From NCBI RefSeq assembly GCF_003334315.1, contig NZ_QOWR01000057.1: a DNA stretch of 29,365 bases; one strand, 5' to 3'. This DNA is from Escherichia coli (lineage in GTDB: Bacteria > Pseudomonadota > Gammaproteobacteria > Enterobacterales > Enterobacteriaceae). Position numbers: made by a program. Shown piece by piece: positions 1 through 3,000 of this stretch (position 1 is the first letter of the stretch; each line of letters starts with the position of its first letter).

Positions 1-3000
1 AACTGATGGAGATGGAAGCCACGGGAGCACCTCAAAAACACCATCATACACTAAATCAGTAAGTTGGCACCATTACCGAGGCTGGCTATATAAAAATTAC
101 CGGACGCAAAAAAGATATTATTGTCCGCGGCGGCGAAAATATTAGCAGCCGTGAAGTGGAAGATATTTTATTGCAGCATCCTAAAATTCACGATGCCTGT
201 GTGGTTGCAATGTCCGATGAACGTTTAGGTGAACGATCATGCGCTTATGTCGTGCTGAAAGCGCCGCATCATTCATTATCGCTGGAAGAGGTAGTGGCTT
301 TTTTTAGCCGTAAACGGGTCGCAAAATATAAATATCCTGAACATATCGTGGTAATCGAAAAACTACCGCGAACTACCTCAGGTAAAATACAAAAGTTTTT
401 GTTAAGAAAAGATATTATGCGGCGTTTAACGCAGGATGTCTGTGAAGAGATTGAATAAGTTTCATCTTCGGGGATCACATAACCCCGGCGACTAAACGCC
501 GCCGGGGATTTATTTTATTTCTTCAGTTCAGCCAGGCTTAACCAGGTTTGCACCACGGTGTCCGGGTTCAGAGACAGGCTATCGATCCCCTCTTCCATCA
601 ACCATGCGGCAAAGTCTTCGTGGTCGGACGGACCCTGACCGCAAATCCCGACATATTTGCCCTGTTTCTTCGCGGCACGGATAGCCATCGACAGCAGTGC
701 TTTCACCGCATCGTTGCGCTCATCGAACAATTCAGACACCACGCCGGAGTCACGGTCCAGACCGAGCGCCAGCTGCGTCATATCGTTTGAGCCAATTGAG
801 AAGCCGTCGAAATATTCGAGGAACTGCTCGGCCAGCAAGGCGTTGGACGGGATTTCACACATCATGATGATTTTCAGCCCGTTCTCGCCACGTTTCAGCC
901 CCTGACGCGCCAGTTCTTCAACCACCGCTTTCGCCTGATCTACGGTACGCACGAACGGGATCATGATCTCAACGTTGGTCAGTCCCATGTCGTTGCGCAC
1001 ACGTTTCACTGCTTCACACTCCAGCGCGAAACAGTCGCGGAAGCTGTCGGAAACATAGCGGCCCGCGCCACGGAAGCCGAGCATCGGGTTCTCTTCATCT
1101 GGCTCGTAACGCTCACCACCGACCAGGTTGGCATATTCGTTCGATTTAAAATCAGAGAGACGGACAATGACGCGCTTCGGATAAAACGCGGCACCCAGCG
1201 TCGCGATCCCTTCAGTCAGACGACCAACGTAAAATTCACGCGGAGAATCAAAACCTTTCATCATCTCGCGGATTTCGTTTTGCAACTGCGGTTCCTGATC
1301 GTCAAACTCAAGCAGTGCGCGTGGGTGGACGCCAATCATACGGTTGATGATAAATTCCAGACGCGCAAGGCCCACGCCTTCGTTCGGTAGGCAGGCGAAG
1401 TCGAAAGCACGGTCCGGGTTACCGACGTTCATCATCACTTTCAACGGCAGATCCGGCATCGTTTCTACGCTGGAGCTTTTCACGCTAAATTCCAGCAACT
1501 CCGCATAGACGTAACCAGTATCACCTTCGGCACAAGAAACAGTGACGTTCTCACCGTCTTTCATCCGTTCTGTTGCATCACCACAGCCCACTACCGCCGG
1601 AATGCCCAGTTCACGAGCGATGATCGCCGCGTGACAGGTACGACCGCCACGGTTGGTGACGATGGCAGATGCTTTCTTCATGATCGGTTCCCAGTCCGGA
1701 TCGGTCATGTCAGTAACCAGCACGTCGCCAGGTTCGATGCGGTTCATTTCGCTGATGTCATGGATGACTTTCACCGGACCCGCGCCGATGCGATGACCGA
1801 TAGCACGGCCTTCGGCGATAATCTTACCCTGTGAATGCAGCGTATAACGCTCCATGACCTGACCGCGTGAGCGCACGGTTTCCGGACGCGCCTGCACAAT
1901 GAACAGTTTGCCGGTGTGGCCATCTTTCGCCCACTCAATATCCATTGGGCGACCGTAGTGTTTCTCAATTTGTACGGCCTGTTTTGCCAGTTCCTGCACT
2001 TCTTCGTTGGTCAGCGAGAAGATGTCACGCTGTTCCTGCGGTACGTCTTCGATTTTAACCTGCTTGCCGTGCTCCTGGGTCGGCGCGTAAACCATGCGGA
2101 TTTTTTTCGACCCCATGGTGCGGCGCACGATAGCCGGGCGATTCGCCGCCAGTGTCGGTTTATGCACGTAAAACTCATCCGGGTTAACCGCACCCTGCAC
2201 GACCATTTCCCCAAGGCCCCATGCGGAAGTGATAAACACCACCTGGTCAAAGCCGGATTCGGTATCAATGGAGAACATCACGCCAGAAGATGCGAGGTCG
2301 GAGCGCACCATCCGCTGAACACCGGCGGAGAGCGCCACGCCACGGTGATCGTAACCCTGGTGCACACGATAAGAGATGGCGCGATCGTTAAACAGAGAAG
2401 CAAATACATGTTTCACTGCCACGAGAACGGCGTCAAAACCCTGAACGTTGAGGAAGGTTTCCTGCTGACCGGCAAAGGAAGCGTCCGGCATGTCTTCTGC
2501 GGTGGCGGAGGAGCGTACCGCAAAAGAGGCGTTTTCGTCATCGGCGGAAAGCTGTGCATAGGCTTCGCGGATGGCGTTTTCCAGCTCAGGCTGGAAGGGA
2601 GTGTCGATAATCCACTGGCGGATTTGCGCGCCCGCTTTCGCAAGCTGGGTAACATCGTCAATATCCGTTTTATCCAGCAGTTCATAAATGCGCTGGTTTA
2701 CGCCGCTTTGGTCCAGAAACTGGTTAAACGCGTCGGCGGTTGTGGCGAAACCATTCGGAACGGAAACACCCATTCCGGAAAGATTAGTAATCATTTCACC
2801 CAGGGAGGCATTTTTGCCCCCAACCCTGTCTACATCATTCATGCCGAGTTGGTTATACCAAAGCACCAGCGGTGACGAGCCATTGTTGGACATCGAACAA
2901 TCCTTTTGTGATAAATGAACGGTTTGAGAAACACATTTCTGCGCATTTATCTTTGCATATTTAACCGGATGAAAAAAACGGTGAATCGTTCAAGCAAATA

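Follow-up and report, generated by a model that had tools for sequence, protein, structure and literature searches.

The Cra (FruR) operator of ppsA in the divergent ppsA/ppsR control region of Escherichia coli

The window, by which is meant the whole 29,365-bp stretch of DNA analyzed, is a piece of the E. coli chromosome and is collinear throughout with K-12 MG1655 (NC_000913.3, 1784220-1813584). It contains ppsA, the gene for phosphoenolpyruvate synthase, and ppsR (formerly ydiA), which encodes the regulatory kinase/phosphorylase of PpsA. The two genes are divergent, and the spacer between them (2894-3225) has a length of 332 bp and a GC content of 32.8%, as compared to 48.7% for the window. 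This is very much the AT-rich, divergent region of 330 bp that the original prediction had described from the sequence. The spacer differs from that of MG1655 by three SNPs (3042, 3050 and 3172), and these leave the Cra box and both promoters unaffected. Of 5426 complete E. coli genomes, 5421 contain a 701-bp segment around the Cra box with at least 95% identity, and an identical stretch of 71 bp surrounds the site in 4787 of the 4850 E. coli genomes that gave a short-query match. Two of 5425 places of the ppsA-ppsR control region in E. coli genomes fall on records labelled plasmid. Positions 1-77 of the window have no ungapped alignment with the fadK 3' region of MG1655, while the remainder is collinear apart from scattered SNPs, a difference that points to a small indel or divergent stretch at this edge of the window. 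The features of the control region are collected in Table 1.

Table 1. Genes, promoter elements and Cra operator of the ppsA/ppsR control region, in window coordinates.
Feature	Position	Strand	Basis
ppsA, phosphoenolpyruvate synthase (regulated gene)	515-2893	minus	NCBIfam NF005057, 1317 bits; MG1655 annotation
49-nt 5' leader of ppsA	2942 down to 2894 (remainder after +1, 2894-2941)	minus	mapped start
Transcription start of ppsA, +1 G	2942	minus	start-site table of PMC3415461, via coordinate offset
Probable extended -10 of ppsA: TG (-15/-14), C, hexamer AAAGAT (-12 to -7)	2949-2957	minus	conservation; distance to mapped start
Conserved G+T-tract GTTTTTTT (ppsA sense), -37 to -30, in place of a -35	2972-2979	minus	conservation profile
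Cra (FruR) operator of the ppsA promoter, imperfect palindrome GGTGAATC/GTTCAAGC	2980-2995	plus	consensus, matrix, conservation, published position
Promoter-proximal strong half-site GGTGAATC, TGAATC core	2980-2987	plus	core kept across aligned loci
Promoter-distal degenerate half-site GTTCAAGC	2988-2995	plus	two main forms across genera
ppsR core promoter block TTTAATTTATGCTTTCATAGAATTA; -10 candidate TATGCT at 3184-3189	3177-3201	plus	mapped starts; conservation in related genera
ppsR (formerly ydiA), regulatory kinase/phosphorylase of PpsA	3226-4059	plus	NF049928, 431 bits

The start-site table of Kim et al. 2012 (PMC3415461) lists a sole start for ppsA, at K-12 position 1785185 on the minus strand, with 420 reads and a 49-nt leader; the upstream sequence given for it in that table is TGAACGATTCACCGTTTTTTTCATCCGGTTAAATATGCAAAGATAAATGCG. 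Published coordinates were converted with a constant offset (window = K-12(v2) - 1782243), which was checked against the gene coordinates of PMC3415461 and against the coordinate of a PdhR box (PMC7660256). No TTGACA-like -35 hexamer occurs at the ppsA promoter. The string TGcAAAGAT is probably the extended -10, given its conservation and its distance to the mapped start. A scan with the sigma-70 consensus returned no minus-strand promoter at ppsA, where the real one is without a -35 and has a hexamer of 3/6. Plus-strand sigma-70 matches at 2924-2953 and 3097-3126 were rejected as promoters, since no corresponding start is found in the PMC3415461 table. GATAAA (2951-2946) was also rejected as a -10; measured from the mapped start it would occupy -9 to -4, and conservation falls on other bases, in the pattern TGn + nAnnAT.

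Other regulators have been connected with ppsA. For example, the gene is named among the SELEX targets of CRP (PMC3105977). No CRP site of the form TGTGA-N6-TCACA with two or fewer mismatches was found in the spacer, so no CRP site is assigned there. A PdhR box, AGTTGGTTATACCAAAG, lies inside the coding region of ppsA (2847-2863; 31-47 nt past the ATG) and agrees with its consensus at 11/14 positions. This box comes from genomic SELEX; its gel shift was smeared, and ppsA mRNA in a pdhR mutant was about 2-fold lower (PMC7660256).

The divergent ppsR promoter, which was predicted to share the spacer, is indeed there. Two ppsR starts are given in the PMC3415461 table, 1785439 with 8 reads and 1785444 with 7 reads (window 3196 and 3201), and neither overlaps the Cra box. 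The ppsA and ppsR promoters stand back to back, 254 bp apart and without overlap. The block TTTAATTTATGCTTTCAGnnAATTA (3177-3201) is conserved unusually tightly for so weak a promoter, and it has no recognizable -35. An IHF-like reading of TTTCAGnnAATTA near ppsR was dropped, because the mapped starts show this block to be the core promoter.

The Cra site was predicted as a consensus match at 2980-2993, and this match is exact. The sequence, GGTGAATCGTTCAA, is on the plus strand 87-100 nt upstream of the ppsA ATG. It fits the 14-bp Cra consensus RSTGAAWCSNTHHW (PMC5829826) at all positions and is the sole exact match on both strands of the window. The consensus is a loose one: by chance 0.30 matches are expected per window (about 0.003 per 332-bp spacer), and 25 of 100 shuffles contained at least one. 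The match is therefore unremarkable on the scale of the window. A longer palindromic motif, gcTGAAtCGaTTCAgc, has been derived from ChIP-exo and RegPrecise (PMC5888115). The 16-bp form of the ppsA box, GGTGAATCGTTCAAGC (2980-2995), shares 12/16 identities with it; agreement is complete in the left half, while the right half, with 3/6 core positions matched, is degenerate. The central CG of the box is at 2987/2988. Neither the exact site nor its reverse complement or sub-strings of it led to any relevant paper in a full-text literature search.

With the ppsA start at 2942, the Cra box lies upstream of it, as predicted. The 16-bp box spans -38 to -53, with the central C/G at -46/-45 and the centre at -45.5; comparison with the mapped promoter elements thus does not put the box downstream of the ppsA start. 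According to the summary of Negre et al. 1998 given in PMC7897506, the E. coli FruR operator of ppsA is centred at -45.5 relative to the transcription start. The centre of the box coincides exactly with this published position, which identifies the site in the window as that operator. The published operator (Negre et al. 1998, J Mol Biol 276:355; cited in PMC7897506, PMC5555440 and PMC4050194) and the box in the window are equal in organism, gene, centre at -45.5 and gluconeogenic activation, and no difference is detectable in the window's box. The site is almost certainly the already known Cra activator site of ppsA, with Cra binding and activation taken from the literature. As such, the Cra site of ppsA is nothing new.

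A Cra matrix was built by de novo expectation-maximisation on the upstream regions of 12 other Cra-regulated MG1655 genes (fruB, pykF, pfkA, icd, aceB, pck, fbp, epd, edd, ptsH, mtlA and gapA), with ppsA excluded. Over these 12 promoters the procedure recovered nnTGAAnCGATTCAGC, which is the Cra motif. In a scan with this matrix the ppsA box (2980-2995) is the top match in the window at 12.8 bits. It is the only place in the spacer that exceeds 5 bits; the next best reaches 4.4 bits, too low for a further Cra site to be accepted there. The score of 12.8 bits corresponds to P 1.5e-5 per position, or 0.89 expected matches per window and 0.010 per spacer, and 65% of windows simulated with a Markov-1 model hold an equal or better match. 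Under the full matrix the ppsA box falls below every training site (minimum 14.0 bits). Leave-one-out scores of the other targets vary from 6.5 to 21.3 bits, and on this footing the ppsA box ranks 9th of 13 with the asymmetric matrix and 5th-6th of 13 with the symmetrised one. These ranks place it inside the range of accepted Cra targets and not below threshold. The ppsA box scores like a genuine, middling Cra operator, and the score alone is no proof. The second-best match in the window, GATAAAACGTTCCAGT (26429-26444, minus strand), is inside the ydjM coding region and at 12.4 bits comes nearly to the level of ppsA. It is probably due to chance and shows how poorly the matrix score alone discriminates.

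Conservation of the site was followed across the Enterobacteriaceae. A PpsR scan with one genome per species gave 80 loci, in 73 of which the spacer could be delimited; the Cra box is present in all 73 spacers extracted. The core of the proximal half-site, TGAATCG, is invariant in 74/74 aligned sequences, with differences in the outermost base or two in 7. In the ppsA sense the conserved string reads TGCTT(GA/AC)ACGATTCACCGTTTTT, and the proximal half together with the central CG (CGATTCA) never changes. The distal half occurs in two main forms, TTGAAC and TTACAC in the same sense. On the plus strand, GTTCAAGC is found in 46 of the 74 sequences and GTGTAAGC in 26, the latter mainly in Enterobacter, Kluyvera, Lelliottia, Leclercia and Kosakonia. 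A single position of the GTGTAAGC form departs from the strict 14-mer, and for this reason some related loci lack a strict-consensus match. Downstream of the box about 10 nt vary freely, followed by a conserved TATGCnAnnAT in which two critical bases, A at -11 and T at -7, are kept; the +1 G of ppsA is also conserved in these spacers. The centre of the box and the first base of the -10 hexamer are separated by 33 nt in 67/74 sequences and by 34 nt in the other 7. A distance held fixed across variable sequence is what is predicted for an activator that must face the polymerase, and it is probably the strong half-site of the Cra box that does so.

Other Cra operators (e.g., those of fruB, icd, aceB, epd, pfkA, ptsH, mtlA and pykF) share the architecture of the ppsA box, with a strong half GCTGAATCG, a central CG and a weaker second half. 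The ppsA box differs from them in having GG rather than GC before TGAA and in a poorer distal half (GTTCAA versus GATTCA), and by score it belongs in the lower middle of the family. Its placement also sets it apart from the Cra boxes of glycolytic genes. The ppsA box precedes the core promoter and serves activation; the glycolytic-gene boxes overlap or follow the promoter and repress. A different mode of activation is known for the orthologous regulator of Vibrio cholerae. FruR of that organism is likewise a transcriptional activator, at the fruB promoter, where it binds between -35 and -10, requires fructose-1-phosphate and acts by a MerR-like distortion (PMC7897506). In contrast, E. coli Cra at ppsA binds at -45.5, is effector-free and depends on the alpha-subunit C-terminal domain as a class I activator, as that paper summarizes it.

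These features are consistent with the following mechanism for Cra, the protein by which E. coli senses sugar flux. At low glycolytic flux, as in growth on acetate or pyruvate, effector-free Cra would bind the two half-sites GGTGAATC and GTTCAAGC, with its centre 45.5 bp upstream of the ppsA start. A promoter without a -35 hexamer and with a weak extended -10 should depend on a bound activator, and the weak core promoter may well explain the strong activator dependence of ppsA. Bound Cra would then help RNA polymerase to bind via the alpha-subunit C-terminal domain, as has been reported. When sugars are abundant, fructose-1-phosphate would free Cra from the DNA and ppsA transcription would drop. 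Fructose-1,6-bisphosphate has been proposed as a Cra effector too, but this is disputed.

The literature on ppsA bears on several of these steps. In the account of PMC7897506, which draws on Negre 1998, FruR acts at ppsA as a class I activator and makes the alpha C-terminal domain of RNA polymerase bind more strongly. FruR binds the ppsA operator directly and activates in vitro; it stimulates ppsA transcription and is not absolutely required for it. The same account, citing Negre 1998 and Ramseier 1993, has fructose-1-phosphate interfering with FruR binding. Activation of this gluconeogenic gene by Cra, proposed from the sequence, is thus supported, -45.5 being the position of an activating FruR/Cra operator in that source. 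A ppsA promoter reporter showed 16-fold induction on acetate as compared to glucose (PMC5555440), and deletion of cra places PpsA among the proteins with the strongest decrease (PMC8363753). The Cra site makes ppsA one of the most Cra-responsive promoters of E. coli, and this promoter has been used as a biosensor of glycolytic flux; a variant with a scrambled Cra site serves there as the Cra-independent control and reference (PMC5555440).

If a degenerate 14-mer had merely arisen by chance in AT-rich DNA and had no function, this would fit the window-wide statistics given above, where a quarter of the shuffles hold a consensus match and the matrix score is not significant. Within the 332-bp spacer, however, only about 0.003-0.01 matches are expected. 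Chance would also have to account for a core that is invariant across many genera, for a spacing to the -10 that stays fixed while neighbouring bases drift, and for a centre that agrees with the published operator position to the half-base, so that this explanation is scarcely credible. At the scale of 29 kb neither consensus nor matrix score alone can separate a real site from chance; promoter position and cross-genus conservation decided. The ppsA site may in this respect be regarded as a positive control, a characterised regulatory site correctly recognised from raw sequence. That the box serves mainly as an operator for a different LacI/GalR-family regulator (a palindrome of the TGAA-CG-TTCA type), with the Cra dependence of ppsA being indirect, is also very improbable. 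Operators of this family do have a central CG and A/T-rich arms in common. Against such a regulator, a matrix learned from Cra targets alone ranks the ppsA box first in the window, the summary of PMC7897506 has FruR binding directly at -45.5 and activating in vitro, and it was a ppsA promoter with this site scrambled that was built as the Cra-independent reference of the flux biosensor (PMC5555440).

A further possibility would add to ppsA activation by Cra rather than replace it. The box could be bidirectional and control ppsR as well, co-regulating the enzyme and its kinase/phosphorylase. The two genes are divergent and functionally coupled, several conserved blocks are spread across the spacer, and SELEX-type studies regard such spacers as potentially bidirectional. 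The centre of the Cra box is, however, about 208.5 bp upstream of the nearer ppsR start at 3196, far beyond the normal distances of an activator or repressor. The ppsR starts are weak compared to the 420 reads of ppsA, and a literature search found no paper that treats ydiA, ppsA and Cra together. Shared Cra control of ppsA and ppsR is therefore unlikely.

Conserved KdgR-like palindromes lie between the two promoters. A palindrome ATGAAA-N6-TTTCAT occurs at 3097-3114, with arms conserved across the 73 Enterobacteriaceae loci and a 6-nt middle that is free to vary. A second element, AAATAAAA-N6-GTTCATTT, at about 3118-3139, also has arms conserved across these loci, and (G/T)TTCATTTT is a conserved motif at 3132-3140. 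In both elements the arms stand one bp wider than in accepted E. coli KdgR operators. The KdgR consensus AAATGAAACAnTGTTTCATTT (PMC5559549) was used as the criterion for a KdgR box, i.e., a 21-bp palindrome with arms TGAAA/TTTCA 5 bp apart. Positions 3095-3115 match it at 14/20, with the arms 6 bp apart, which is one too many; 3119-3139 matches at 12/20 in E. coli, at 15/20 in other genera and at 17/20 in L046. For comparison, accepted E. coli KdgR targets in the N5 register score 19/20 (kduI), 17/20 (kdgT) and 15/20 (kdgK), and exact TGAAA/TTTCA arms 6 bp apart are absent from these three. In simulated AT-rich spacers a KdgR match of at least 14/20 arises with a chance of 0.15. Regulation of both ppsA and ydiA by KdgR has been described in Dickeya, as cited from Rodionov et al. 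2004 in PMC6127512. The elements at 3095-3115 and 3119-3140 can be regarded as putative KdgR-type sites with an imperfect fit to the consensus. That the spacer holds further undescribed control, with both elements being operators for a regulator other than KdgR, or for KdgR itself in an unusual, activating mode of binding, is a rather doubtful but not negligible prospect. If true, such a factor, with Cra at -45.5, could coordinate PEP synthase with the regulatory kinase PpsR.

Several other features were observed elsewhere in the window. Downstream of ppsR, the mechanical open reading frame of aroH begins at 4093, the annotated start is at 4216, and the mapped transcription start is at 4165. 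A match to the CRP core with one mismatch, TGTGACACACCTCGCA at 4113-4128, has its centre about 44.5 bp upstream of this 4165 start. Two structured RNAs were matched in Rfam, both on the minus strand: the sRNA STnc540 at 10934-11092 (67 bits), which overlaps the ihfA 3' end as well as the upstream region of btuC, and the Phe leader of pheST at 14933-15057 (75 bits).
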